A stretch of DNA of 64,000 bases, from the IMG/VR virus record IMGVR_UViG_2703718833_000007, positions 1-64,000 of that record; one strand, given 5' to 3'. The translations under genes and the position numbers were made by a program. Positions 38,358 to 63,458 of this stretch are shown piece by piece (within the stretch, counting starts at the first letter, position 1; every line of letters begins with the position of its first letter). The notes under the pieces are model-generated. The model worked only from the letters and a program-made list of their open reading frames with translations. It did no database searches and was not told where the DNA came from. This stretch comes from a virus (lineage: Duplodnaviria > Heunggongvirae > Uroviricota > Caudoviricetes).

Positions 38358-40703
38358 ATGGCTACCAGTTTAGGTACAATTTATTACGAAGTTGATGCAA
38401 AAACTGGTCAACTTCTAGTCGCTCAGAGACAGGCTGATCAGGCTTTTGACAGTATAGAGCGCGGCGCAAAACGTGCCGACCGCCAGGTGAACACGCTTAA
38501 GACTTCAATCAAAGCACTATCCAGGGTCATCCATCTGTTACTTGCTGCGGAGGCTGTGCGCCAGTTTATTGACATGGCGGAGCAAGCAAAAATGCTTCGT
38601 GTCAAAATTAAAATGCTCACAGGTGACGCAGAGGCTGCAGGACGTGTTTTTGACGGCCTGAAAAAAATATCAAAGGAAACCGGGCAAAGCCTTAAAGACA
38701 CTGGCGAATTGTGGCAGGGCCTGGCTATTTCACTAAAGAACACTTCCGCTACGGAAGGCCAATTGCTCAACCTGGTTGGCACTATTCAGAAGATGGGTGC
38801 GTTAGGAGGCGCGTCAGCGGAACAGATGTCTAATTCTATGCGCCAGTTCCGCCAGTCTATAGACGGCGGCGTGCTGCGTGCTGAAGAGTTTAACAGCCTG
38901 TTAGAGAACACGCCGACCATCGTACAGACAATGGCCCGCCATATGGGGTTGTCAATGGGCCAGTTCCGCGCCGAAATGCTGGACGGCAAGATCACGGCTG
39001 AAAGGATGGTTAACGCGATTCAGGCAGCTACACAGGAAACAAACGAGAAGTTTGCACAGTTGCCGCGCACGTCCGGCAAGGCTATCAATGAGCTTAAAGT
39101 TGAGGTGATGGGACTTGTCGAACAGTTAGACGATCTTTTCGGCATATCAGATGGCGTTGTGTCGGCAATAGACTTAATCACTGGTGGCGTTGAGGGATTA
39201 GGTAAAGGCGCAAAATTCGCCGCAACATGTTTCAATACACTAAAAACGGCTGGCAGTGAGTTCATAGACATGTTTGACGACGTGGCTGTTAAGGCTGGCG
39301 AGGTGGCGGAAGAAATCATTAGAATGGTAACGCCAATCAAGGCGCTAATGGATGGCTACAAATGGATGAAGGAGATTGTAGGAAAGCAAACAGAAGAATA
39401 TAACACCAATTATGAGAAGAAATACGGTAAAAGACTTGGTAAGGGAATGCAATTTTGGGATGATTGGCAGGCCGTACTTAACCAAACAAAAGAAAACAAA
39501 GGAACCGACACCGCTAACGACGGCAAGATCACCGGATTCGAGCCGCCAGTAGATAAGCCAGGAAAACCGAAAAAAGGCAAAAAAGACAAGAAATCTGAAG
39601 CTGATCGGCTTGGTGATGAAGGTGTAAGTGTCTCCGACCAGTACAACAAAGACGCCGCCGCTATGCGTAAAGCACTGGAGAACGGCAAGGCCATTGACGC
39701 TGCGTTTGCTCAGGGCAAAATAACCCTCCTTGAGTACAAGGCAGCGCAAAAGGGGATAGGCAAGGAACTGAAGGACGAATTGGCACAAATCCCGGTAGAA
39801 GAATTGCAGGACAAATGGGCGCACATAGTAAGCCCGATGGATCAGCTTAAGGGCGAAATTGACCCAATCAAACAGGCGCAGAATGAATGGGCAGTAAGAA
39901 AGCAAATGTTATTAGACCTGGGCGCTACAGAGGCGCAACAGAGACAGGCGCAGTTAGAATATGAACAACAGATCCGCGATCTGAAGTGGGAGCAGTGGCA
40001 GGCGCAAAGCGACACAAACAGCCTGATCGGTGCTTGTGTTAGCGGCCTCAAAGGTGGCATGGGTAATGCTCTTACCGGCCTGCTAAACGGCACTCAATCA
40101 TTAAGCGAGGTTTTCGCCAACCTGGGAAGCAGCATACTTAACACCGTTGGCAACAAACTCTCAGAAATAGCCGCTAACTGGATAGCAGATCAGTTAATGA
40201 TGGAAACGCAAAGCAAGGCTACCCAGGCAAGCACTGCGGCTGGCGCTGTGGCTGCCCAGGGTGAGATCGCGGCAGCGGCGGCCCCGGCAGCGGCGGCTAC
40301 GGCTGCATCAACTGGCGGTAGTTGGGCTATGGCTGGTGCTGCGGCGCTTTCTGCGATCATGTCGCTGGCAACGTCAATTTTTGGCGGCGGGCGTTATAAT
40401 GGTGGTTCTGTGAATGGTGGTAGTCTGTATCGCGTAGGGGAACACGGAATACCTGAGCTATTCCAGACGAGCAACGGGCGTCAGTATATGATCCCTGGGG
40501 AAAATGGCAGGGTTATTCCTGGCCGCGATCTTTTCAGTGGTGGCGGCATTAATATGCCTGTTAACATCACTGTTCAGACCACAAACGGGTTTAGCGACGA
40601 GGACAGTCGCAGACTTGAGCAGACAATGGAACGTGTAGCGATGAAAATGATGGCAAGGGAATCGCAACGACCGGGCGGAATGTTGCAACCTCGCCGCAAA
40701 TAA
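38358..40703 (+). CDS. tail tape measure protein
   Basis: 781 aa; coiled-coil-rich with Gly-rich C-terminal region; position. Confidence 0.85.
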   Translation: MATSLGTIYYEVDAKTGQLLVAQRQADQAFDSIERGAKRADRQVNTLKTSIKALSRVIHLLLAAEAVRQFIDMAEQAKMLRVKIKMLTGDAEAAGRVFDGLKKISKETGQSLKDTGELWQGLAISLKNTSATEGQLLNLVGTIQKMGALGGASAEQMSNSMRQFRQSIDGGVLRAEEFNSLLENTPTIVQTMARHMGLSMGQFRAEMLDGKITAERMVNAIQAATQETNEKFAQLPRTSGKAINELKVEVMGLVEQLDDLFGISDGVVSAIDLITGGVEGLGKGAKFAATCFNTLKTAGSEFIDMFDDVAVKAGEVAEEIIRMVTPIKALMDGYKWMKEIVGKQTEEYNTNYEKKYGKRLGKGMQFWDDWQAVLNQTKENKGTDTANDGKITGFEPPVDKPGKPKKGKKDKKSEADRLGDEGVSVSDQYNKDAAAMRKALENGKAIDAAFAQGKITLLEYKAAQKGIGKELKDELAQIPVEELQDKWAHIVSPMDQLKGEIDPIKQAQNEWAVRKQMLLDLGATEAQQRQAQLEYEQQIRDLKWEQWQAQSDTNSLIGACVSGLKGGMGNALTGLLNGTQSLSEVFANLGSSILNTVGNKLSEIAANWIADQLMMETQSKATQASTAAGAVAAQGEIAAAAAPAAAATAASTGGSWAMAGAAALSAIMSLATSIFGGGRYNGGSVNGGSLYRVGEHGIPELFQTSNGRQYMIPGENGRVIPGRDLFSGGGINMPVNITVQTTNGFSDEDSRRLEQTMERVAMKMMARESQRPGGMLQPRRK

Positions 40704-40709
40704 ACAAAA

Positions 40710-40736
40710 CCCCGGTACAATGCCGGGGCTATTTTT
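40710..40736. terminator. bidirectional rho-independent terminator
   Basis: CCCCGG-TACAATG-CCGGGG hairpin flanked by A-run and T-run. Confidence 0.55.
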
Positions 40737-40929
40737 AGTTGTTCTCAAAACTTGTATATCCTCTTTCAATTTTTCCACCGTGTACGCTTCTGGCAAATAC
40801 CGCGTCAGTATACCTGAAAAATGGGCATGTATATGTATCCCCTTTACTATCCATATATTTTAGCACCCATGCTATGCGTTTTACGTTGCTTTTATTTGCC
40901 GGATTTTTCATTTTATTTTTCCTCCGCAA
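40735..40929 (-). CDS. hypothetical protein, last gene of reverse cassette
   Basis: 64-aa track ORF; two further micro-ORFs possible between it and HNH gene, including 41013-41162. Confidence 0.3.
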   Translation of the reverse strand: MRRKNKMKNPANKSNVKRIAWVLKYMDSKGDTYTCPFFRYTDAVFARSVHGGKIERGYTSFENN

Positions 40930-41174
40930 ATCACAATCTTCCGTTTCTTGCTATATAGCTGCGAGCAAACATCACCTGCCAGATGTTCCAAATCTCACGC
41001 CACGTAAATTCATCATCTTCCATATCTCACACCATCGCGCTTGTATGGTTCGCCATCAGCAAACGGGATTAACTCATCGTTTGCCACCATTCGATTAAAC
41101 CAGTCTTTCAGAACAACCAGGGAGAACCGGATCCCGTAACTGTGCAATTCGCGCCACCTCATTTATGTGCCACC

Positions 41175-41681
41175 CTATTTACCGTGATTTGGATGAAAAC
41201 CGTATTTAATTTCGGATTCTTGCCTTGCCTTGATTGCATCATCTTTGCTTTTGAATACCCCTAAATGTTTTAATTTTCCGTTGATTCTGATAACTGCGCA
41301 CCATTTACGCAATCTTTCAAGCCAATAAACACCAGCACAGCCGGATTTATTATTATGGTTGCGACTTCTGTTGTGGTTATTGTCTTGGCAGGTAACTAGC
41401 CGCAAATTTTCTATATGGTTGTTTACCTTATTGTGATCGATATGATCTATTTCCATTCCTTCCGGGATTGGTCCGTTGTGCATTTCCCATATAATTCTAT
41501 GCTCTTGGTATATCCTCCTGTTAAACCCTACATGTATATACCCACTTCGTTTATGAAGGCACCCGGCTCGCTTTCCCGCATATCTTGAATTCCAGGTTTT
41601 GGAAACGCCATTTCTTGGCTTCCATAATATAGCGCCGTCACTGTATATAAAATAATCATTCCAGTTAATTACTTGTGACAT
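41175..41681 (-). CDS. HNH endonuclease with AP2 domain, copy 5
   Basis: IDHIDHN HNH_3 motif, AP2-like segment, C-terminal KYGFHPNHGK. Confidence 0.8.
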   Translation of the reverse strand: MSQVINWNDYFIYSDGAILWKPRNGVSKTWNSRYAGKRAGCLHKRSGYIHVGFNRRIYQEHRIIWEMHNGPIPEGMEIDHIDHNKVNNHIENLRLVTCQDNNHNRSRNHNNKSGCAGVYWLERLRKWCAVIRINGKLKHLGVFKSKDDAIKARQESEIKYGFHPNHGK

Positions 41682-41923
41682 CCGCGCACCCCTGACAATT
41701 CATTAAATTTGTGATGCTCGACGATTACCCATGCTTTCAAGTCCTGGCTATAAACACGCCAATCTAAATTGGCGCGGAAGGCGTAGCCGTAGCCGTCCTT
41801 TAATTTTTTGGGTGCAACATCCTTGTTTAAAAACGCGTTCAGAAGTGCTTTTGCTTTTTTGATTACGTGTCCAGGTGCGTTTTTCTGTGCTTTAAGATTT
41901 TTGTCAATCATTACCAATTTCAT
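41669..41923 (-). CDS. RelE/ParE-superfamily-like small protein (putative toxin)
   Basis: 84 aa; pattern LKDGYGYAFRANLDWRVYSQ...WVIVEHHK resembles RelE/YoeB-type fold; tentative. Confidence 0.35.
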   Translation of the reverse strand: MKLVMIDKNLKAQKNAPGHVIKKAKALLNAFLNKDVAPKKLKDGYGYAFRANLDWRVYSQDLKAWVIVEHHKFNELSGVRGCHK

Positions 41924-41943
41924 AACTCACCCCACGCAATCCA

Positions 41944-42150
41944 TTAGTTGACCACTTTCAGGAAGAAATCACGGTATTCATCTTCTTTTGCGTTCATCAT
42001 GAATTGACCGTATTTGAATGCGTCATCAAAGCCTTTTACAATCGCCACTTCCACCTGTTCGAATGCTTTGTTTAGCATTACCACTACATAGCGTTTCATG
42101 ATGCCCCCCCTTTGTTGGTACTTCTTTCTCTTCTTGCTTTCTATATACAT
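41944..42150 (-). CDS. small hypothetical protein upstream of RelE-like gene
   Basis: 68-aa track ORF; internal Met gives 51 aa; first gene of reverse cassette. Confidence 0.35.
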   Translation of the reverse strand: MYIESKKRKKYQQRGGIMKRYVVVMLNKAFEQVEVAIVKGFDDAFKYGQFMMNAKEDEYRDFFLKVVN

Positions 42151-42269
42151 CTTGTTATGTCCTGTGTGAAGCCATTTTGTAAACTGGGTATAATTCTTGT
42201 GACGAAGTTCTCATTTTTCGCGTAGAAGCGCGTAAAGATGTATGCAATATGTAACTTATAGGGGGAATC

Positions 42270-42623
42270 ATGCCGGAAGTTTTCAGATGGACGCCACAAA
42301 GAAGCTACAGCGTGACCAGGGAACCAAATGTGTCGGTCGTTAAACTTGGTGATGGTTATGAACAGCGCCAGGCGAAAGGGATTAACACGTTGCTTGATAG
42401 CTACACCCTGGTTTTTAAAGGCAGTAGCGCAGGATGCGGTGATGGTGGGAACGTGGCGATCCAGGCAGAAGCATTCTTGAGGGCGCGCGGCGCTGTCGAG
42501 GCTTTTTACTGGTCGCCGTCTATGGATGGCGTGCAAAGGCTTTTTGTTTGCCGTAGCTGGAGTATGACAAAAGACGGGCCTGTATACACGCTAAACGCAA
42601 CATTTGAGCAAGTTGTCAGCTAG
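42270..42623 (+). CDS. minor tail protein M (lambda gpM-like)
   Basis: 117 aa; recalled similarity and position before L/K/I/J. Confidence 0.75.
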   Translation: MPEVFRWTPQRSYSVTREPNVSVVKLGDGYEQRQAKGINTLLDSYTLVFKGSSAGCGDGGNVAIQAEAFLRARGAVEAFYWSPSMDGVQRLFVCRSWSMTKDGPVYTLNATFEQVVS

Positions 42624-42820
42624 TGGGGGTTAATATGTACGGGACTTGTGTAGTTGACAAAACTGACGCATTTACATTATTTGACGACTATGAGATCAAC
42701 GACCTTACTGTAAAGGCTGACAATGGCGATACATGGTATCTTCATGATGTTGGTGACGGGTATGTGGGGTGCAGATCCAGAGAAGGCAAGGAGGTTTTAT
42801 TTTTGGTTGATGGCGTATAA
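42623..42820 (+). CDS. hypothetical protein (65 aa)
   Basis: Coupled to M (ATGA-type overlap). Confidence 0.4.
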   Translation: MGVNMYGTCVVDKTDAFTLFDDYEINDLTVKADNGDTWYLHDVGDGYVGCRSREGKEVLFLVDGV

Positions 42821-42826
42821 TAACAA

Positions 42827-42850
42827 CCCCGCTTCGCGCGGGGTTTTCTT
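42827..42850. terminator. rho-independent terminator
   Basis: CCCCGC-TTCGC-GCGGGG hairpin plus TTTT. Confidence 0.5.
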
Positions 42851-42851
42851 G

Positions 42852-42989
42852 TCAGTAGTGAATGTACATCAAACTCATTGGGTGAGCGTGCGCCATATTA
42901 TTGGCTATCGCCGCCCAGTCCCAATCGGCAGCATGAACGCCAAATACTATCAGTCCCATTATTATTAGCGCCAAAACTTCTATTTTCAT
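42852..42989 (-). CDS. reverse-oriented small membrane peptide (45 aa)
   Basis: MKIEVLALIIMGLIVFGVHAADWDWAAIANNMAHAHPMSLMYIHY; AGGTGA RBS 6 nt upstream. Confidence 0.3.
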   Translation of the reverse strand: MKIEVLALIIMGLIVFGVHAADWDWAAIANNMAHAHPMSLMYIHY

Positions 42990-42999
42990 AATCTGTCAC

Positions 43000-43248
43000 C
43001 TATAAGTTATCACGCAGGTAATTAACGCCCTTATCAGTGACGAATGAATGGTTGACCTGGTTTTCATCCGTCATAATGATGAATAACTTTTCTTGTAGGT
43101 ACTTAGCTTTCGGGTACAGCGTTAAACAGACCTGGTACAGTATCCCGCGCTCAATCAGCAAATCAATAAATTCGTGCTCATGATAACCGATGATGCGAGC
43201 GGCCTGTTTCAACGTGTACACATAATCGCCGTGATTGCGCCGCGCCAT
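43000..43248 (-). CDS. hypothetical protein (82 aa), reverse cassette
   Basis: Operon-context ORF on opposite strand within tail module. Confidence 0.4.
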   Translation of the reverse strand: MARRNHGDYVYTLKQAARIIGYHEHEFIDLLIERGILYQVCLTLYPKAKYLQEKLFIIMTDENQVNHSFVTDKGVNYLRDNL

Positions 43249-43257
43249 ATTGCCGCC

Positions 43258-43608
43258 TTATTTATCGAACGCAGACAAATTATCGATACAGAAATCTTTT
43301 GCCGCTTTTTCGTATTCGCGTTTTGCTTCTGGAACGTCAACCGGAAAACCTTTTGCGTGTATTTCACCAGGGCAAGACTGATCCATAGAATCCGCAAAAT
43401 TAACATTGAAGCTAACATCAATATCTTTAGGGTTCATCTCTTCCACCATATCAGGTACTTGGACCGGAGTAATATCAAAATCACGAGCGTTAGACCAACA
43501 GCGAAGTAATTCGCGACCTTCATCACGCGCCGCAGCATATGTGTCAAATAGGCCCATGCGTTCCCATTCACATTTATCAGTCCAAATTTCTAAACTATAT
43601 TTTTGCAT
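43258..43608 (-). CDS. hypothetical protein (116 aa), reverse cassette
   Basis: Operon-context ORF. Confidence 0.4.
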   Translation of the reverse strand: MQKYSLEIWTDKCEWERMGLFDTYAAARDEGRELLRCWSNARDFDITPVQVPDMVEEMNPKDIDVSFNVNFADSMDQSCPGEIHAKGFPVDVPEAKREYEKAAKDFCIDNLSAFDK

Positions 43609-43621
43609 TTTTGTTAACCTC

Positions 43622-43795
43622 TCATTTGACAGGTTCTATCCTGTACCCCAAAACGCGGTCATCCTCAGCAAGTAAAAGCGCGTCAGTAAGTGCCTCGCCT
43701 TCATCCTTATACAGAGCTACAGTCATTTCCCTGCCATCCGCTAGGAATACCTTCAATCTCCACACCTTATCAACCATCTCACACCTCCGCGCCAT
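43622..43795 (-). CDS. hypothetical protein (57 aa), first gene of reverse cassette
   Basis: Start at ATG 43795 with AGGG RBS; track gives longer 43852 start that would include the palindrome. Confidence 0.35.
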   Translation of the reverse strand: MARRCEMVDKVWRLKVFLADGREMTVALYKDEGEALTDALLLAEDDRVLGYRIEPVK

Positions 43796-43820
43796 TTTGT
43801 TAACCCTGCTTTCTTTTGAG

Positions 43821-43838
43821 TACAATATACATATTGTA
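43821..43838. promoter_or_regulatory. operator-like palindrome upstream of reverse cassette
   Basis: TACAATAT-AC-ATATTGTA, 8-bp inverted arms. Confidence 0.4.
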
Positions 43839-43905
43839 AAAAGCGCTATCAACCGTTTTGGTATGATTTAGCGTGACGGCGATCACAAAATGACAAGGTG
43901 ATAAA

Positions 43906-44610
43906 ATGCGCAGCATACCTACAGAAATGATTATTGATTCCGTGGATTCCGGAGTCGGCGCGGTAATTGACTTGTTTGAATTGGACCTCACGCCCCTGGG
44001 TGGCGAGGTTATCCGCTTCCATTCCGGCGCGAATGGCTATTACGGCCCGGTTATCTGGAAGGGAGTGGCTTACAACAGCTACCCAATCGAGGTAACTGGC
44101 TTCGAAATGAAAAACGAAGGCGTTTACTCACGCCCACAAATGGTAGTAGCTAACATTGGCGGGCTAATCACTGGGATGAATAACGATTTTAACGACCTTC
44201 GAGGAATGAAGGTTACGCGCCGCCAGGTGGAAGTAAAATACCTTGACGCTATCAACTTCCCCAACGGCAACCCAGATGCAGATCCATCTATTGAGGCTGT
44301 ATCTTTTTACGTCGTTGAGGCGATGAGCGAAGAAACAGCCGACCAGGTGCAATATGAACTATCAACGCCAATTGATGCTGATAAAGCTGTTATCCCTGGG
44401 CGCACAATTCTCGCTGACGTTTGCCAATGGCAGTATCGCGGAGACGGTTGCGGATATAGTGGCGGCCCTGTAGCTACTGATAAAGACGAATCGACCAGCG
44501 ATCCAAAGATGGACAAATGCAGCCACCGCCTAAGCGGTTGCCGTTTGCGTTTCCCGCGCCCGAATCCGTTACCAATTTCATGTTTCCCTGGATCGAGCAA
44601 GGTGGGTTGA
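43906..44610 (+). CDS. minor tail protein L (lambda gpL-like)
   Basis: 234 aa; recalled lambda L similarity including C-terminal Cys cluster. Confidence 0.8.
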   Translation: MRSIPTEMIIDSVDSGVGAVIDLFELDLTPLGGEVIRFHSGANGYYGPVIWKGVAYNSYPIEVTGFEMKNEGVYSRPQMVVANIGGLITGMNNDFNDLRGMKVTRRQVEVKYLDAINFPNGNPDADPSIEAVSFYVVEAMSEETADQVQYELSTPIDADKAVIPGRTILADVCQWQYRGDGCGYSGGPVATDKDESTSDPKMDKCSHRLSGCRLRFPRPNPLPISCFPGSSKVG

Positions 44611-51170: not shown

Positions 51171-51278
51171 TACTAACCCCGCTACGGCGGGGTTTATACA
51201 TATAGTAAACACATATTCGTCTGCGTAATGATAAGGCGTTAAAATAGTATGGTTAATTAACATAATGGAGTCATTGCG

Positions 51279-53649: not shown

Positions 53650-54654
<1,005 letters not shown>

Positions 54655-54700
54655 CAAAAGCAATTTTTCCGGCTGTCTGTATACAAAAACGCCGCAAAGT

Positions 54701-54714
54701 TTGAGCGAAGTCAA
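54701..54714 (+). promoter_or_regulatory. FNR-box upstream of fnrS
   Basis: TTGAGCGAAGTCAA matches TTGAT-N4-ATCAA consensus, centred about 42 bp upstream of predicted sRNA 5-prime end. Confidence 0.5.
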
Positions 54715-54749
54715 TAAACTCTCTACCCATTCAGGGCAATATCTCTCTT

Positions 54750-54871
54750 GCAGGTGAATGCAACGTCAAGCGATGGGCGTTGCGCTCCATATTGTCTTAC
54801 TTCCTTTTTTGAATTACTGCATAGCACAATTGATTCGTACGACGCCGACTTTGATGAGTCGGCTTTTTTTT
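54750..54871 (+). ncRNA. fnrS: FnrS small regulatory RNA
   Basis: Between zntB and dbpA; begins GCAGGTGAATGCAACGTC and ends with GCCGACT...AGTCGGC hairpin plus T8; matches recalled FnrS locus. Confidence 0.6.
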
Positions 54872-54928
54872 GCCTGTTATTTATCAGCGTCTACCCTTTA
54901 AGAGTCCACCCAATGACCAGAGGGAAAT

Positions 54929-55102
54929 ATGACGACACTTATTTATTTGCAAATTCCTGTCCCTGAACCGATTCCTGGCGATCCTGTTCCAGTGCCCGAT
55001 CCGATCCCTCGCCCGCAACCCATGCCTGACCCACCACCCGATGAAGAACCGATTAAATTGTCGCATCGTGAGCGTAGATCTGCGAGGATACGCGCCTGCT
55101 AA
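54929..55102 (+). CDS. small proline-rich ORF (57 aa)
   Basis: AGAGGG RBS; MTTLIYLQIPVPEPIPGDPVPVPDPIPRPQPMPDPPPDEEPIKLSHRERRSARIRAC; coding status unverified. Confidence 0.3.
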   Translation: MTTLIYLQIPVPEPIPGDPVPVPDPIPRPQPMPDPPPDEEPIKLSHRERRSARIRAC

Positions 55103-55131
55103 CTTTGCGTCGATGACCACGAGAATAGATT

Positions 55132-56505
55132 GTGACCGCTTTTTCTACCCTGAATGTTTTGCCTCCCGCCCAACTCACGAACCTTAATGAGTTGGGTTAT
55201 TTAACCATGACGCCGGTGCAGGCCGCCGCGCTTCCGGCGATCCTTGCCGGAAAAGATGTTCGCGTGCAGGCGAAAACCGGCAGCGGCAAAACGGCGGCTT
55301 TTGGCCTCGGCTTGTTACAGCAAATTGATGCGTCGCTATTTCAAACCCAGGCTTTAGTGCTGTGTCCTACGCGTGAACTGGCGGATCAGGTGGCAGGTGA
55401 ATTGCGTCGGCTGGCGCGTTTTCTGCCAAATACCAAAATTTTGACGTTGTGCGGTGGTCAACCGTTCGGTATGCAGCGTGATTCGTTGCAACATGCGCCG
55501 CATATTATCGTGGCAACGCCGGGGCGTTTGCTGGATCACCTGCAAAAAGGCACGGTATCACTGGATGCGTTGAATACGCTGGTGATGGATGAGGCCGACC
55601 GCATGCTGGATATGGGATTTAGCGATGCCATTGATGATGTCATCCGTTTTGCGCCTGCATCTCGACAGACGCTTCTGTTTTCGGCAACCTGGCCGGAAGC
55701 CATCGCTGCAATCAGCGGACGAGTGCAACGCGATCCTTTGGCGATTGAAATTGACTCAACAGATGCTTTGCCACCCATTGAACAACAATTTTATGAGACA
55801 TCCAGCAAAGGCAAAATTCCTCTGTTGCAACGGTTATTAAGCTTGCATCAGCCATCCTCTTGCGTGGTGTTTTGCAATACCAAAAAAGATTGCCAGGCTG
55901 TCTGCGACGCGCTGAATGAAGTAGGGCAAAGTGCATTGTCATTACACGGCGATTTGGAGCAACGCGATCGCGATCAGACCCTGGTACGTTTTGCTAACGG
56001 TAGCGCCCGTGTACTGGTCGCGACTGATGTTGCTGCGCGTGGTCTGGATATTAAATCGCTTGAGCTGGTGGTGAACTTTGAGCTGGCGTGGGACCCTGAA
56101 GTTCATGTACATCGCATCGGTCGTACAGCTCGTGCAGGAAATAGCGGTCTGGCGATCAGTTTCTGTGCTCCGGAAGAAGCACAGCGGGCCAATATCATTT
56201 CTGACATGTTGCAGATAAAACTTAACTGGCAAACGCCGCCAGCTAATAGTTCCATTGCGACGCTGGAAGCAGAAATGGCAACGTTGTGTATCGATGGCGG
56301 GAAAAAAGCCAAAATGCGCCCGGGTGATGTATTAGGTGCACTGACAGGAGATATCGGGCTTGATGGCGCAGATATTGGCAAAATCGCCGTGCATCCGGCG
56401 CATGTCTATGTCGCGGTCCGTCAGGCTGTTGCTCATAAAGCATGGAAACAGTTACAGGGCGGGAAGATTAAAGGAAAAACGTGCCGGGTGCGGTTATTAA
56501 AATAA
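55132..56505 (+). CDS. dbpA: ATP-dependent RNA helicase DbpA
   Basis: 457 aa; DEAD-box motifs (GSGKT, DEAD, SAT, HRIGRTAR) and C-terminal RNA-binding domain; GTG start. Confidence 0.9.
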   Translation: MTAFSTLNVLPPAQLTNLNELGYLTMTPVQAAALPAILAGKDVRVQAKTGSGKTAAFGLGLLQQIDASLFQTQALVLCPTRELADQVAGELRRLARFLPNTKILTLCGGQPFGMQRDSLQHAPHIIVATPGRLLDHLQKGTVSLDALNTLVMDEADRMLDMGFSDAIDDVIRFAPASRQTLLFSATWPEAIAAISGRVQRDPLAIEIDSTDALPPIEQQFYETSSKGKIPLLQRLLSLHQPSSCVVFCNTKKDCQAVCDALNEVGQSALSLHGDLEQRDRDQTLVRFANGSARVLVATDVAARGLDIKSLELVVNFELAWDPEVHVHRIGRTARAGNSGLAISFCAPEEAQRANIISDMLQIKLNWQTPPANSSIATLEAEMATLCIDGGKKAKMRPGDVLGALTGDIGLDGADIGKIAVHPAHVYVAVRQAVAHKAWKQLQGGKIKGKTCRVRLLK

Positions 56506-56633
56506 TGAAATGTTGAATTGCCGGGTGCAAGAGTAAACATCTTATTCGGGATTGCCGGATGCGACGCTGGCCGCGTCTTATCCGGCCTCCATAAGAGTAG
56601 CCCGATACGCTTGCGCATCGGGCGCTATCCTGG

Positions 56634-57569
56634 TTATTTCACTTCAACCACATTCAGCCGTAACTCATCCAACTGATTTTCATCTTCTTCTGGCTGCCAG
56701 CACGCCGGTTGTAGTGGGATCTCTTCGCGATCAAACGCCAGATCACCCCCGTTAACCACTTCAGAACCGTGGGTGATGCCTTTGAAATCGAACAGGTTGG
56801 TATCGCACAGATGCGACGGCACCACATTCTGCATCGCGCTGAACATCGTCTCGATACGCCCTGGATAACGTTTATCCCAGTCACGCAACATGTCAGCAAT
56901 CACCTGACGTTGCAGGTTAGGCTGTGAACCGCACAGGTTGCACGGAATAATCGGGAACGCTTTTGCATCGGCAAATCGCTGAATATCTTTCTCGCGGCAG
57001 TAGGCCAGCGGACGAATAACGATATGTTTGCCATCATCGCTCATCAGTTTCGGAGGCATACCTTTCATCTTACCGCCGTAGAACATATTTAAGAACAACG
57101 TTTGCAGGATATCGTCACGATGGTGACCCAACGCGATCTTCGTCGCCCCCAGTTCCGTTGCGGTACGATAAAGGATACCGCGACGAAGGCGAGAACACAG
57201 TGAGCAAGTGGTTTTGCCCTCTGGAATCTTCTCTTTCACGATACCGTAAGTATTCTCTTCAACAATCTTGTACTCAACGCCCAGCTTTTCAAGATACTCG
57301 GGCAGAACGTGTTCCGGGAAGCCCGGTTGCTTTTGATCGAGGTTAACAGCCACCAGCGAAAAATTGATTGGCGCGCTTTGCTGCAAATTGCGCAGAATCT
57401 CCAGCATGGTATAGCTGTCTTTACCCCCGGAGAGGCAAACCATGATGCGATCGCCTTCTTCAATCATATTGAAGTCAGCAATGGCTTCGCCCACGTTACG
57501 ACGCAGACGTTTTTGTAATTTGTTCAGATTGTATTGTTCTTTCTTTGTAATTTGTTGATTTTCTTGCAT
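56634..57569 (-). CDS. ttcA: tRNA 2-thiocytidine biosynthesis protein TtcA
   Basis: 311 aa; PP-loop SGGKDS motif and Cys clusters. Confidence 0.9.
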
Positions 57570-57620
57570 TATTTCAGTTCTCTGGTACTAAATGGGGCAA
57601 ATTGGGGGCAAACTTTGCAA

Positions 57621-58856
57621 CTACGATAACCGCGCATTCAACATGGCTATCTGTTCGTCGTTCATGTCATCAATCCACATACCGTAAATTTCATACACCA
57701 TCTGCGCAGTTTCATGCCCCATTTGGCTGGCTATAAATGCCGGGTTCGCTCCTGCCGTCAACAGCCAGCAGGCAAAAGTATGCCGCGTATGGTACGGATT
57801 ACGGCGGCGAATACCAGCACGTTTTACTGCTGCATTCCACCTTGCCCCCAAACTGCTTACCGAGTAATAAGGTTTTTGTTTTCCGTTACACACCCTGGGC
57901 ATGAAAACAAAATGCAGTTTTTGCTTTTCGGTTCTGCCGTACTCCCGATGATAAAAGGTGATTTCGCTTTTGCGATGATGCCCGGTCAGTTTGTATTGCT
58001 CCTTCAGTGCTTCAAGAGCAGGCTGCAGTAGTGTTACTGTTCGGATCCCGGCATTTGTTTTTGGGGGACCGAACATATCAAGTATCGTCAGGTTTCTTCT
58101 GACATTCACTATTCCCTTTTCGAGATCCACATCCTCCCACGCCAGAGCTGCCAGTTCCCCGTGACGAAGTCCTGAGTAAACGGCAAATTTCCACAAGTTC
58201 TGGCTCTGTCCTTTTTCACTTTCCATTAATGCATTGAATTCTGTTTTAGATAACGGATCAGGCTTTATTCTGTTTCGCTGTAATTTTTTTACTCCTTCAA
58301 ATGGTTTGGTTGATATAAATCCCGACTGATACGCAAAACGCAACAGCGAACAGAGCAGGGCGATATAGTTATCAACTGTGCGCACGGTTCTTCCTTTTTT
58401 GTTGGATCTTGGATTATCCAGGTAAAGCGTTTCTCCATGCAGCAGTTCATTCCGGTAGTTTAAGATATCGCTATAACGAATATGTGATATCGGGGTACTT
58501 TCACAAATTATTATTCTGAGTGTTTTTAATTGTGATTTTGTTTTCTTCATTGTGTATGTTGTTAACTCTGTCTCTTTAATTTTTGTCCAGATATCACAAA
58601 GCTCTCCGAACGTTTTTATGACTCTCGTTGTCACCATTTTTGCCCCAGTGCTGGACTGGGGAAAACGTCTTAAATACTCAAATTCACCGGAGTTTATTTC
58701 ATGAACTATCAGCGCTCTTAAATTTCCGGCCTTTTTAATATTACTGTTTGTAATCTCCCAGCCTTTTAATGTTTCCCGACATCGTTTTCCTCGAAACATG
58801 AACCAGATGCGAATGTATCTACCTCTAATCTCGACACCTGTTGGTAATTTAGACAT
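57621..58856 (-). CDS. intR: Rac prophage tyrosine integrase
   Basis: 411 aa; tyrosine recombinase C-terminal motifs (R...HxxR...Y). Confidence 0.9.
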   Translation of the reverse strand: MSKLPTGVEIRGRYIRIWFMFRGKRCRETLKGWEITNSNIKKAGNLRALIVHEINSGEFEYLRRFPQSSTGAKMVTTRVIKTFGELCDIWTKIKETELTTYTMKKTKSQLKTLRIIICESTPISHIRYSDILNYRNELLHGETLYLDNPRSNKKGRTVRTVDNYIALLCSLLRFAYQSGFISTKPFEGVKKLQRNRIKPDPLSKTEFNALMESEKGQSQNLWKFAVYSGLRHGELAALAWEDVDLEKGIVNVRRNLTILDMFGPPKTNAGIRTVTLLQPALEALKEQYKLTGHHRKSEITFYHREYGRTEKQKLHFVFMPRVCNGKQKPYYSVSSLGARWNAAVKRAGIRRRNPYHTRHTFACWLLTAGANPAFIASQMGHETAQMVYEIYGMWIDDMNDEQIAMLNARLS

Positions 58857-58857
58857 A

Positions 58858-59073
58858 TCATGAGTCTTTGATAAACTGATTTATCTTTGGATAGTTGTAC
58901 CAGATAATCCCTCGTTTGCTGTCTGGCTTACCTAAAGGAGATACTCGTTTGAAGTGGAAGCCCTCCACCCAACAGTTCTGGCGGTATGCTTCAATTTGTC
59001 TGGCCCCCAGACCAGTGCGAAGCATCAGGCCGTATTCAACCATCCACTCTTCATTAAAGATTACTTGTGCCAT
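58858..59073 (-). CDS. xisR: Rac excisionase
   Basis: 71 aa from internal Met [10 protein letters not shown]; directly upstream of intR. Confidence 0.75.
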
Positions 59074-59151
59074 CGCATCACCTCTGGCAGGCGCCAATGT
59101 TAGACTGAAATTGACGCCCGATGTTGATTATTAATAATAAGCTATGAAGTT

Positions 59152-59361
59152 TTAATTTGAATACAATGCAATTCTCGAGGACTGAAGTTTCTCGCAATTA
59201 AAATTTATCAGTTTTACTTTCTGCTCTCTGGAAACGCCTGCTTCTTTTTTACCTGAGAGCATTTTTTCGCATTCTGATTTCGTTAGTTTAGATTTTGAAT
59301 ATCTTGTCCAGTTAGTAGGAGTGCCACCTTCCTTTTCAATAGTGGCGGTAATTTTATACAT
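59152..59361 (-). CDS. rcbA: Rac small protein RcbA-like
   Basis: Track ORF 93 aa; likely 69 aa from MYKITATIEK; assignment from recalled Rac gene order. Confidence 0.5.
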   Translation of the reverse strand: MYKITATIEKEGGTPTNWTRYSKSKLTKSECEKMLSGKKEAGVSREQKVKLINFNCEKLQSSRIALYSN

Positions 59362-59548
59362 GAACACCTCCATTATTATTTCCAGTGGTTCGTTTATTCC
59401 ATCTTTCGAGTGCTTCTTTTTCACCTCCACCATAACCGGTTCGGGATTCGCATCCGTTACACTTCGCTCGGTAATATCCTGAAATGGCTTTCACCGTTAC
59501 TGATGGACAACCACAAAATGGACATGGTTTAACATTGTCATATCTCAT
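59354..59548 (-). CDS. ralR: RalR / Lar (restriction alleviation protein; type I toxin)
   Basis: 64 aa from MRYDNVKPCPFCGC; CxxC...CxxC zinc-ribbon. Confidence 0.7.
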   Translation of the reverse strand: MRYDNVKPCPFCGCPSVTVKAISGYYRAKCNGCESRTGYGGGEKEALERWNKRTTGNNNGGVHV

Positions 59549-59604
59549 AATTTTTCTCATAAAAAATATTTCAAGTTGGCGGTGCATTACACCGCCAGGC
59601 TGAA

Positions 59605-60414
59605 TTATTCCTCTGAATTATCGATTACACTGTATTCCCCGGTTAATACAGAGGAATCTGCAGGATCGATTGTCAGTGGTTCCTTTTCATCCATTGATAC
59701 TGCACGCTGGATCTCAATTGATACGGGCAGATATTTGAACAGGCGACGAATAGCCGTTTTCTTTGCCATTTCTTCCCAGTGAGTTACCCACGGCCCGTTA
59801 TTACCAGCTTTACTCAGGCTGCGCACCAGCTCAATCTGTTTGCGCGTCATAACTTCAAACTGAGTACCTCCGTCTTTCAGTCTTGCGACAGCATAGACGT
59901 GGGTAACCGGGGCATCTTCGTTTTCTCCCGGGCGGTGTATTAACTTTTCATCAAGGCCAAATTCGAAGCTAAACTCGTCACCTTCACGGACAACACGGGC
60001 TGACAGGCTGGCGATTTGACCAGAACGGCGAGCCAGATCAATCATGCCGCGATAGCCAATGATTAGCTGAACGTTCTTTTTACCGCTCTTTTCGTTTTTA
60101 TTACCAAAAGGCAGTAAATATGCATGACCGAGGGCGCTACCTGGCTCAAGTCCGAGCTGTGAACACTGTACGATCGCACTGACAAAACTCATAGTGTCAC
60201 AGTTTCCTAACGCCGGAACTTTACGAATTTCTGTGGTGGCGATACGGATCATACGTTCAGCCGTCATATGGCGTGGAAGAGCTGCTGCCAGTTGCTCTTT
60301 CATTGATGGCTGGTTAATAAAACTAATCACGTCGCTATTTTTAACTGCTGCTGGTGCACGGTTTCCCTGAGTTTTTTGCAGATCGGTTTTTGCGATTGGT
60401 GGTTGCTTAGTCAT
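59605..60414 (-). CDS. recT: RecT single-strand annealing protein
   Basis: 269 aa from MTKQPPIAK; start overlaps recE stop. Confidence 0.9.
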
Positions 60415-63007
60415 TTGCATATTCCTTAGCCCAGCGGGGCAGTGATAATGTCTTAATAGCTGGCCATTCATCGGTATTCAGGCAGTCAGACAGGGTTCGC
60501 AGATTGCGGTGATATTCCTGTTGACCTGCCAGTTTTGCTTCTTCGCCCATCATGAAAATTTCAACCGGATAACGTCCGCATTCAATAGTTGTGCTGGCAA
60601 CCAGAAAAACGAAAGTTGGCTGCACTCCAAACTGTGCTTCATAACCGTCACTGTAGAATGCATCCTGAACGTGATAGCGGTAGTCGTAATAAGCGGTTTT
60701 GAATCGTTGAATATCCGCCGTAGTTTTCACGTCCATGATCCAGTGAAATTCAGGGATAATTTTGTCCGGACGGCACCGACACAAAATTCCTGTTTCAGGA
60801 TCTTCCCAGTAAATTGATGATTCAGCGTGTCCGGCGCTTTCAACAAGCCATTGCCCCAGCGGCAAAGCCATAACGCTTTGATACATGAGTTCAATTTTCC
60901 GGCCTTCTTCCGCAGTGATAACCGTTTTTCCTGTGCTTGCGCATTCCATCAGAAACGCTTTCTCTTCTTCTTTTCCGGCGTTTGTACGGCGGTTAAATTC
61001 AGGTGCTACGATAAAGCGGTTACTGAATTCCTCCGGTTCAAGTACCCGGCAGTGGAAAGCGGTTCCTAAATCGAGCGTTTTTGTCTTTGTGGTGTCCACG
61101 GGGGCATTTTTACGCCACAAATATAGTGCCGGAGTATCAGCAATGTCATCGAGCTGAGACTTACTGACACCGGGACCCGCGTGGTAATTCTCATTCGAAA
61201 TTCCGTAATAAATACCTGGCTCTATGTCTTCTACGATTACGGGATCTGCGACTTCGCCAGTTTCATCACTGCAATCGCGATGCGGATCGCTGCCAGCATT
61301 CTCATTGTGCGGATGTTCAGCGCCTTCCATTTCCTCCGGATCATTTTCCTTAGCTTCAACCTGACTCTCTTCATCGAATGTTTCCTGGTATGTTGCGTCG
61401 CCCATCACCGCACCACAGTCAGGGCAGTTATCCCCGCCAGTCTGGCCGCAGGCATTGCAGGCTATTTCCGGTTCCTGTTGCACTACTGGCTCAGGTTGAT
61501 TCATATCCGGGCTGGTTTTTTCCGTTTCTGGCTGGTTCTGGTACACACAATCGCGAGTCTGGATCCCCTTTACCCATTTCGGATCGTTCGGGTCGCTAAT
61601 TCCGTCAACAAATTCACCACGTGATGCAGCAAGCAATTTATCGGCATCGACAGGATTTTTTGATGGAATGTTTTTCCGGGCTTCATGGAGTTCTGCCCGC
61701 AGTTCCTGATATTTCGCATCAACAGAATTTACCTGTGACTGAGCATCCAGCGGCTGCGTGTCCTGATGATGTTCAGTTGCGTCCGGTTCCATTGTTTCAG
61801 CCTCTCCCTGTTCAACTGCCGTTGTTCCAGATGGTTGCGGTTTTTCTTCATCATCCTGTTTTCCTTCTTCTGTTACTCGCTGCGGCATCGGGGCAGAGGA
61901 GCGACCGCAGGCAATATCCACGATTTCCGGATCAGGGTTGGCATGATCGGTTTCAGTCAGTACTTTGTTCAGATATTCAGTGACGTGCGCGGGGATGACC
62001 TCGATCCCAATTGGTGCTTCTTTTACGGACGCAACCACGATGGCGCGGGAATAATCCAGCCCGCCAGGCATGGTGATGAATTTGTCGCGGAAAACAGAAA
62101 AGGGCGGTTTATTTTCAGCGATAATTTCCTCAATGCGTTTAGCGTGTGCCGGATGAAGGTTATAGATGTCCAGATCCATTGAACGGGCCAGTACGCCAGT
62201 GGCTACGTCGCGCGCCAGTGACGTCAGATCGTGTACGAAACCTTCGCCGCGATCGGTGAGGTTTCCGCCGCCAGCATTAGCACCGGAAGCCGTGCGAGTG
62301 ATGTGTGAAACACGATTACCCTTCATCCACTCTTTTGTCAGCAGTCCTCGATCGGTGTAGTCAGCGTTCAGGTATGCTTCGAAAAAAGCAGTTATCAGTC
62401 CCAGGTTTGAATTACCAGGATTAGGGAAAACTTTGTCAGTGTCACGAACCAGTTTGTGGAGTTCGCGAATTTCCAGCGGGTCGAGCAGGCTGGTTTTGTG
62501 GGAAACAGCCAGGGCAGTAACAGCCGGTAGTTCTTCAGCCCGAGCAATGTGTAATGCCTGGAGTCCGTCGCGTGAAACGTGCGTTACCGGTTTTTCGCTG
62601 CCGTGTTGAGCAAGCCAACGAATGGGCAGTTCCTGGCCAGAAATTGGGAGTAGCATATTCTCCTCAATCTCAGTCATGTCTTCGCCGTTGACGTTGGTAT
62701 TGCCTTGATAGTGAGCGTTGTCTGGTGCTGCTCCCGGTTTTAGTTCCCATGTCATGGAGTCTTTGCTGAGTTGATAGCGTTCACTCCAGGTAAAATCGAT
62801 CTCACCTTCAGCGGGCAGGTCATTAACGACAGGAAAATTCGTGGCAACAGCTTTAAAATAGCTGCTCAGTTTTTTACCTGACTTAACGATCAGGTAGTCC
62901 AGAGTGGCACAGGTCGATTCAAAATCGTTGCTTGCCCACAGGACGACGTCAGGTTCACCGGATGATTTTTTCGCTTTCCGTAACAGGAAGAGTGGTTTTG
63001 TGCTCAT
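60407..63007 (-). CDS. recE: RecE exonuclease VIII
   Basis: 866 aa; followed by recT. Confidence 0.9.
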
Positions 63008-63108
63008 TGTTTTTTAACCTCAACTCAGATTAAAATTCGTTTTGTTCAGTGAATGATCTTGCCGGATACACACTGTTCATAGCCTGCGCCATACGCAGGC
63101 TATTTCTT

Positions 63109-63384
63109 TCAGATTTCACCTTTTAATTTCATTGCAATTAGAGTTGCCAGAAATTCGGCTTTTTTTTCTGCGGGCAGATTCTTTCCGATATGCACCAGGC
63201 ACATTTTTTTGACACCTTCATCAAGTGTTTTTACGTTGCCTGATGGACCATCGATATCAACCACAGTGAATGGGGTTTCTTTATTTTCTGTTTTAATTAC
63301 GTAGCCAATGCGCTTTCCTTCCAGATTCACCTCGTGAACAATGTCATCGGTAGTTACAACAGTGGCTTCATAATTGGTAATCAT
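63109..63384 (-). CDS. racC: RacC
   Basis: 91 aa from MITNYEATVV. Confidence 0.7.
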   Translation of the reverse strand: MITNYEATVVTTDDIVHEVNLEGKRIGYVIKTENKETPFTVVDIDGPSGNVKTLDEGVKKMCLVHIGKNLPAEKKAEFLATLIAMKLKGEI

Positions 63385-63458
63385 GTTTTTCTCCTTAATT
63401 AAGGTTGAGCGAATACCTGCCATTTCTGGCATAAATTCAGTTTCGAATAGTCAATTAA

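Follow-up and report, generated by a model that had tools for sequence, protein, structure and literature searches.

The KilAC (ANT) domain, PF03374, is among the commonest domains in temperate-phage proteins annotated as antirepressors. CreP, the KilAC-only protein of 103 amino acids (aa) of the Acinetobacter baylyi CreAP system, is bacteriostatic, causes filamentation also in Escherichia coli, and weakly co-precipitates FtsZ (10.1101/2024.01.05.574328). The isolated KilAC domain of Gp07 from the Staphylococcus aureus phage Phi11 causes growth arrest and filamentation. In AriS of the Listeria phage phi10403S, the KilAC domain alone blocks the SOS response, probably through RecA, and the regulation of phage genes was mapped to the N-terminal domain, not to KilAC; the Ant proteins of P1 and P7 also include KilAC (PMC9043618). 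Here we describe a cassette of four minus-strand genes, g1–g4, which lies between the tail genes M and L in a 64,000-nucleotide (nt) stretch of viral DNA (IMG/VR record IMGVR_UViG_2703718833_000007, positions 1 to 64,000; hereafter the window), and in which g3 encodes a KilAC domain that stands alone.

In domain content and description, g3 is comparable to CreP. Both are small proteins with a single KilAC/ANT domain (82 aa in g3), both derive from phage Ant/KilA-type proteins, and both are placed behind a tightly controlled promoter, in the case of g3 by prediction. Unlike g3, CreP is encoded within a CRISPR-Cas locus, where a CRISPR-like RNA acts with the Cas effector to repress it, whereas g3 is the third of four phage genes and is accompanied by no CRISPR element. 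AriS and Gp07, whose hosts are Firmicutes, share the PF03374 domain with g3, but in both an AntA/B or Bro-N domain forms the N-terminus, and their genes lie in an early or regulatory region; g3 is without any N-terminal domain and is located on the opposite strand within the tail module.

Two other described arrangements are relevant. The immI region of P22 lies between late genes, in the late region of the genome, behind a dyad-containing promoter. As in immI of P22 and P1, an Ant-family gene is found here away from the main repressor region, with a promoter over a dyad symmetry. In contrast to immI, however, neither an Arc/Mnt-type repressor nor a c4-type antisense RNA could be recognised, searches with g1, g2 and g4 detected no repressor family, ribbon-helix-helix or other, the N-terminal Ant domain is missing from g3, and the operon is oriented opposite to late transcription. 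The cassette also shares properties with the lambdoid morons as defined by Hendrix and Juhala, such as HK97 gp15 in the tail-gene region: it is extra DNA between genes that are adjacent in one relative, it has its own predicted promoter and terminator, and its G+C content differs from that of its surroundings. Unlike morons, it is near-universal in its phage family and comprises four genes in one operon, of which the core is constant and the periphery mosaic; its expression from the prophage is putative.

Our best explanation, which we put forward tentatively, is that the cassette is a self-contained accessory operon that is read in the direction opposite to the tail genes and whose core would be a host-directed KilAC effector with a partner protein. 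The genes themselves are already known, since the records of mEp021 and related phages contain them under the names hypothetical protein and “putative antirepressor”, and the searched text of the paper on the phage family (PMC11893012) does not discuss the cassette. What is new is the anatomy of the operon, the boundaries of the empty site, the constant core with its variable periphery, the multi-allelic head of g2, and the link to toxic or SOS-modulating KilAC domains. Because the domain occurs here alone, in culturable phages that infect E. coli K-12 (mEp021, mEp013 and others), its binding, its toxicity or SOS effect, and its control are open to tractable tests. If the cassette were only a silent accessory operon, the result would be an ordinary one, mainly a better annotation of the mEpimmI group.

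A stand-alone KilAC gene and the C-terminal half of g2 form a constant core

The comparison set comprised 59 loci from seven phages, E. coli prophages, two Logan contigs and 43 IMG/VR contigs; for the regulatory region these represent 46 distinct sequences. The g3 protein matched PF03374 with 30.8 bits (gathering cut-off 25.3, E 4e-7), and residues 10–82 aligned to profile positions 23–105 of 108. By this profile match g3 is a member of the KilAC/ANT domain family, and the statement in the first-pass annotation of this DNA that no cassette protein has a recognisable motif does not hold for it. The structural model of g3 has a MerR/excisionase-like winged helix. Its nearest relatives outside the phage group are the C-terminal domains of Ant/Rha proteins, with 31–39% identity. 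Wherever g3 was present it was located between M and L, with 72–99% identity to the copy in the window, and a KilAC-like protein is ranked among the near-core genes in the mEpimmI paper (PMC11893012).

The g2 protein consists of two dissimilar parts. The N-terminal domain (residues 1–50) is modelled by AlphaFold2 as a β-β-α-β fold with a predicted local distance difference test (pLDDT) score of ~94. The conserved C-terminal half is modelled with low confidence (pLDDT <60) and contains one helix, and the tail is probably disordered. The N-terminal domain occurs in at least seven allelic types (22, 18, 11, 1, 1, 1 and 1 loci), with a mean pairwise identity of 57% and a minimum of 19%, and is under purifying selection within types. 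The C-terminal half is of a single type, with 86% mean identity, and was found in every locus that has g3 (58/58), at 66–92% identity to the window copy.

The same division is seen in the mean pairwise nucleotide identities. The values for g3 (0.886), the C-terminal half of g2 (0.837) and the promoter region (0.867) resemble those of the tail genes M (0.86) and L (0.895), and the head of g2 (0.68), g1 (0.735) and g4 (0.46) are more variable. Conservation of the promoter region, of g3 and of the g2 tail thus equals that of M and L, and g1, the g2 head and g4 are polymorphic, swapped or absent.

Sequence searches with g2 in Pfam, NCBIfam, PADLOC and the Protein Data Bank (PDB) returned nothing. 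When 1.84 billion representatives were searched in full with an HMMER profile, only this phage group was recovered, together with fragments and repetitive noise; as judged from these searches, g2 is an orphan family confined to this group. The fold of its head resembles many uncharacterised phage proteins of 50–70 aa, some of them DUF7336, and the PDB matches are generic.

Anatomy and coding status of the cassette

The four open reading frames (ORFs) were found where they had been placed at first, in a counter-oriented block of ~1 kb between M and L (Table 1). The gaps between the genes are 13, 9 and 10 nt, a Shine-Dalgarno sequence precedes every gene, and the stem of the terminator begins 6 nt past the stop codon of g4. 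Reading frames were read out in 15 loci. Pooled Nei-Gojobori estimates over 7–15 relatives (seven loci for g4) gave ratios of nonsynonymous to synonymous change (dN/dS) of 0.09 for g4, 0.11 for g3, 0.21 for g2 and 0.22 for g1, at synonymous differences (pS) of 0.29–0.38. The flanking tail genes gave 0.07 (M) and 0.04 (L), and orf61, a small gene 3′ of M, gave 0.10. All four genes are therefore real coding sequences under purifying selection, and the absence of coding conservation in relatives, which had been named beforehand as evidence that would speak against the cassette, was not observed. The G+C content is 0.43–0.44 across the cassette versus 0.49–0.52 in M and L, and the GC skew flips sign in the cassette, as expected for minus-strand coding.

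Table 1. Features of the M–L interval and the repressor gene used for comparison (window coordinates)
Feature	Position	Strand	Basis or remark
CI-like repressor, 215 aa	8413-9060		repeats around it compared with the dyad
Tail gene M	42270-42623		PF05939, E 7e-29
orf61, 61 aa, 3′ of M	42635..42820	+	phrog_3249, E 1.9e-22
Bidirectional intrinsic-terminator hairpin	42825..42845	both	8-bp G+C-rich stem, 5-nt loop, AACCCCGC-n5-GCGGGGTT
g4, 45-aa peptide, hydrophobic N-terminal helix	42852..42989	-	ORF
g3, 82 aa, stand-alone KilAC/ANT domain	43000..43248	-	PF03374
g2, 116 aa, acidic	43258..43608	-	phrog_38567
g1, 51 aa (likelier start), acidic, first gene of the operon	43622..43777	-	phrog_29559 (57 aa from ATG 43795)
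Conserved divergent regulatory region g1/L, 110 bp	43796..43905		also + strand promoter-like elements
Dyad, 8-bp arms, left arm overlapping the promoter -10	43821..43838		TACAATAT-AC-ATATTGTA
Predicted sigma-70-like promoter	43824..43852	-	-35 TTGATA (43852..43847), 17-nt spacer, -10 TATATT (43829..43824)
Tail gene L	43906-44610		PF05100, E 1e-71

The first gene had been described as encoding 57 aa. A product of 51 aa is more likely, because the second ATG (43777) is preceded at 5 nt by a strong Shine-Dalgarno sequence, GGAGGTG, and because the relatives of g1 in GenBank and RefSeq are annotated from this second ATG. Both g1 and g2 are acidic, with isoelectric points (pI) of 5.0 and 4.4, respectively. 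Comparison of g1 with the N-terminal domain of g2 by hhalign gave P values of 0.006–0.0085, a weak, collinear and only suggestive similarity, and the secondary-structure pattern predicted for g1, as read from the sequence, is the same as that of the g2 head. Thus g1 may be a stand-alone paralogue of this domain. A profile search of the PDB with g1 returned nothing meaningful. Across the loci g1 occurs in several divergent types (41–96% identity), and in three of them, L007, L008 and L055, an unrelated gene of 52 aa stands in its place. In the first two of these loci, which are E. coli prophages, the N-terminus of g2 is also frameshifted or truncated (L007 1337–1690, L008 1278–1631), yet the frame of the g2 C-terminal half is open and g3 is intact.

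In one further locus (L016, 3001–3519) a separate g1 is missing, and the g2 protein there (P0049, 172 aa) has a tandem duplicate of its own N-terminal domain. The duplicate aligns to the g2 head with an hhalign E-value of 6e-5, and this arrangement links g1 and the g2 head functionally. RefSeq names the 51-aa g1 orthologues “transporter” (for example WP_458677821.1 in L004). We rejected this assignment: no Pfam, NCBIfam or PHROG model supports it and the protein is acidic and soluble-looking, and the name is probably a propagated annotation artefact.

The last gene, g4, is preceded by the Shine-Dalgarno sequence AGGTGA. Its product has a single hydrophobic helix at residues 3–20, IEVLALIIMGLIVFGVHA, in line with the earlier description of a 45-aa membrane peptide. 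In relatives it occurs as a 45-aa or a 38-aa allele, or is absent, as in many loci. Optional genes are also found in relatives, one of 77–79 aa between g2 and g3 (as in mEp021) and one of 67 aa after g3; family searches gave no informative match for the 77-aa and 67-aa genes or for the 52-aa replacement of g1. On the plus strand, orf61 has the Shine-Dalgarno sequence GGGGG before its ATG at 42635 and would be an ORF of 65 aa if read from the GTG at 42623.

Site and boundaries in relatives

The cassette occupied the same site in 58 of the 59 loci, and in 34 of the 35 among the E. coli prophage relatives. A relative in which M and L are adjacent, the comparison by which the first-pass annotation had hoped to define the insert, was found in the prophage of E. 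coli MS 21-1 (L011), where M and L are separated by 127 bp and no cassette is present. In the alignment with this locus the window has 1162 extra bases (42632–43793), which start just before the ATG of orf61 and end at the first ATG of g1. The 110-bp region 43796–43905 is retained in L011. These boundaries indicate that the unit of insertion or deletion is a pair of convergent transcription units that share a bidirectional terminator, rather than the reverse cassette alone; orf61 is predicted to be transcribed with the tail genes, though it lies within the same indel as the reverse cassette. Because the state without the cassette was seen in 1/59 loci only, loss by deletion from L011 is no less likely than gain by insertion in the other loci.

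Predicted terminator and promoter, and the divergent regulatory region

Terminator scoring on both strands confirmed a hairpin at the end of the cassette and placed it at 42825–42845, against the 42827–42850 given before. Its folding energies are −14.6 and −16.4 kcal/mol (z −3.1 and −4.0). The T-run that follows is good on the plus strand and weaker (GTTATTAT) on the cassette strand, and the hairpin is predicted to stop M/orf61 transcripts on the plus strand. A terminator is annotated at the equivalent hairpin in mEp021, mEp013, mEp010 and mEp554. A terminator hairpin with the same stem (AACCCCGC...GCGGGGTT) is also located after the J gene, at 51175–51194 of the window.

Upstream of g1, the predicted promoter TTGATA-17-TATATT was the top promoter-like match (10/12) in a 3.5-kb scan, and both hexamers are conserved across the 59 loci. 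The palindrome with 8-bp arms that had been reported in the presumptive promoter is present at 43821–43838 and overlaps the -10 element of this best site. Perfect palindromes with 8-bp arms are not rare in the window (14 versus ~6 in shuffles), and the position and conservation of the dyad weigh more than its existence. The dyad is perfect in 17/59 loci; the left arm reads TAAAATAT in 35/59, and the right arm shows no compensating change. Because the perfect form is in the minority and changes are not compensated, selection keeps the sequence of the dyad and not strictly its symmetry. A dyad with 7 of 8 matching positions would still be compatible with a candidate operator. The block may equally represent two overlapping -10 elements, since the plus strand has TTGTTA-18-TACAAT at this place.

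We found no second copy of the dyad in the window at ≤3 mismatches, and the repeats that surround the gene for the CI-like repressor in the immunity region are unlike it. The dyad was therefore rejected as a CI operator, and, indirectly, repression of the cassette by CI is not predicted. It was also rejected as a LexA box, as there is no CTG-N10-CAG in the sequence.

In addition to TTGTTA-18-TACAAT, the 110-bp regulatory region contains the plus-strand element TGgTATGAT at 43859–43867. With a mean pairwise identity of 0.867, against a pS of 0.40–0.44 in M and L, this region is far more conserved than the synonymous sites of the flanking genes. The invariant or near-invariant blocks over the 59 loci are CATTTTGTTAAC, TTTGAGTA, AATATACATATTGTA, ATCAAC, GTGAC..GATCAC and the Shine-Dalgarno sequence of L. 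The region is also collinearly similar to positions 42103–42270, upstream of M, with a score of 43 (shuffles 23.9 ± 4.5, maximum 39). Common to both divergent regions are ATATACATnTTGT, CCRTTTT and, on the plus strand, GGTATRATT..GTGAC, a pattern that was picked after the data had been seen; this last motif resembles an extended -10 element. The similarity suggests that the two reverse cassettes, or the tail-gene segments of M and L, may share a regulator or a promoter type. An Rfam scan of 40600–44100 detected no RNA family.

Proposed function and rival explanations

In the explanation that we tentatively prefer, g3 would be an effector on a host process rather than a virion component, and would require tight control, because isolated KilAC domains arrest growth or division or block the SOS response in the three systems described above. 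The cassette genes are located on the strand opposite to the tail genes, have their own signals and match no tail family, and judged from these features their products are probably not part of the virion; the text of the mEp021 paper, whose virion mass-spectrometry list sits in a figure outside that text, does not mention g1–g4. The constant tail of g2, the obvious candidate for a partner, would bind or neutralise g3, and its variable head would provide allele-specific recognition of something else. The tail accompanies g3 in 58/58 loci, g2 ends 9 nt upstream of g3, and in the model a confident head is followed by a low-confidence, conserved tail. A folded head followed by a partner-binding tail is a common build of type II antitoxins. 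In Pfam, NCBIfam and PADLOC, g1–g4 matched no type II toxin-antitoxin family.

The promoter, whose -10 element overlaps the near-palindrome, would be controlled by a dimeric DNA-binding protein, for which g3 itself is one candidate because of its MerR/excisionase-like winged helix. Late transcription that reads through would converge on the operon, which would therefore be active while the late genes are silent, either in the lysogen or at an early stage after infection or induction. Several considerations weigh against this explanation. Its promoter, operator and time of expression are all predicted. The proposed contact between g2 and g3 follows from their co-conservation and adjacency, and linkage alone could give both. 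KilAC mechanisms differ between the tested systems (a weak co-precipitation of FtsZ in one, a probable inhibition of RecA in another), and g3 is just 31–39% identical to the nearest KilAC domains outside the group. The perfect dyad is a minority form (17/59) whose other arm does not compensate, and it may consist of overlapping -10 elements. Finally, the promoter region may serve the expression of L, because it is retained in L011, which has no cassette.

The annotation of the g3 family as “phage antirepressor KilAC” raises the question of whether the cassette is a second immunity module like immI of P22/P1, in which g3 would bind and inactivate the CI-like repressor, the operon would be silenced by a dedicated small repressor at the palindrome, and its derepression would trigger induction. 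We consider this unlikely. The presence of KilAC in P1/P7 Ant, the Ant/Rha domains as nearest outside relatives of g3, the near-core rank of the KilAC gene in the phage family, and the position in the late region behind a dyad-containing promoter, as for immI in P22, all fit an antirepressor. Most mEpimmI phages are not UV-inducible (PMC11893012), and they might rely on an induction trigger that does not involve LexA. However, repressor binding is not known for any isolated KilAC domain, and the phage-gene regulation by AriS maps to an N-terminal domain that g3 lacks. Moreover, no Arc, Mnt, ribbon-helix-helix or helix-turn-helix repressor is recognisable in the cassette, and g1, the sole candidate for a small repressor, varies or gives way to another gene across loci whose operator region hardly changes. 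The cassette could, on the other hand, be a moron expressed in the lysogen, as the first-pass annotation had proposed, and serve in superinfection exclusion or as an abortive-infection defence, perhaps toxin-antitoxin-like with g1 and the g2 head sensing invaders. The structural part of the moron reading stands: the cassette is counter-oriented, has its own conserved promoter-like site and terminator and a lower G+C content, is absent in L011 and has a mosaic periphery. A defensive role would also agree with the strong polymorphism of g1 and the g2 head, as in arms-race genes, with the KilAC-only toxin of the defence-associated module of CreP, and with a ParE-like toxin gene in the neighbouring reverse cassette. 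The reading is weakened, in contrast, by the near-universal presence of the cassette at a fixed position (58/59 loci) where morons are sporadic, and by the fact that the KilAC proteins tested so far target growth, cell division or the SOS response of the host and not superinfecting phages. Neither g1–g4 nor orf61 matched a PADLOC-DB v2 defence model at E ≤0.1, and experiments on this phage group attribute superinfection exclusion to lipoproteins whose genes lie elsewhere (PMC11893012). Since g3 is intact where g1 is replaced and the N-terminus of g2 is disrupted, g1 and the g2 head are not essential antidotes. Overall, we regard a defence moron as improbable.

Two further readings appear weaker. 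The small size and acidity of g1 and g2, the purifying selection within the allelic types of the g2 head, and the resemblance of its fold to a large class of uncharacterised phage proteins of 50–70 aa, DUF7336 among them, would suit inhibitors of host defences, with g3, winged-helix-like and as constant as the operator region, as the regulator of the operon. In this reading the genes would be expressed from a host-type promoter immediately on DNA entry, and the variable heads would track different host targets. We find such an early counter-defence role very unlikely, as no known anti-defence protein is similar to these products, the reading does not explain why the g2 tail is so strictly conserved, and the tested KilAC domains act on the host, not as operon regulators. 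We also consider, with little confidence, a two-part switch of a new kind in which a host-arresting KilAC effector would be held by the g2 tail, and the polymorphic head and g1 would be interchangeable sensors of various proteins of invaders or of the host, whose binding releases the effector, giving an abortive-infection or host-takeover module present throughout the family within the tail genes. One regulator may also control the neighbouring cassette with the ParE-like gene, because both promoter regions are paralogous.

Setting and neighbouring features

The 2.5 kb around the cassette are 91–95% identical to the cultured coliphages mEp013, mEp021, mEp554, mEp515, mEp010 and mEp044, and 88% identical to the phage MagusPhagus; the same phages also match the left 24 kb of the window. 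The mEpimmI group consists of recently described Nus-dependent, non-lambdoid temperate siphoviruses (PMC11893012). The right-hand flank of the prophage (53671–63432) is E. coli chromosome, with genes for a CorA-type transporter, the helicase DbpA and a PP-loop protein. Together with the phage matches, these chromosomal genes identify the window as an integrated prophage of the mEpimmI group (mEp021/mEp013-like) in E. coli. Past the PP-loop protein gene there is a second prophage-like segment with an integrase, RecT and exonuclease VIII (Rac-like), so that two prophages fall within the window. Among the complete E. coli genomes of the collection, none exceeded ~93% identity at the cassette region.

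A second reverse cassette is located at 40708–42269, between the tape-measure gene and M. Its minus-strand genes (41175–41681, 41669–41923 and 41944–42099) include a 51-aa gene (phrog_29810), an 84-aa ParE-like gene (PF24732, E 1.8e-7) and an HNH homing-type endonuclease gene (PF13392), and it ends at a bidirectional terminator at 40708–40730. Its first gene showed no similarity to the g2 profile. The 51-aa and ParE-like genes occur together in all relatives in which this flank was seen, including L011, which lacks the M–L cassette, and from its sequence the pair looks like a toxin-antitoxin pair. In mEp021 (L001, 6882–7448) an extra HNH endonuclease gene, which the window does not have, is located between the tail genes I and J. 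Overall, this group's tail module looks like a hotspot at which homing-endonuclease genes and small genes insert.

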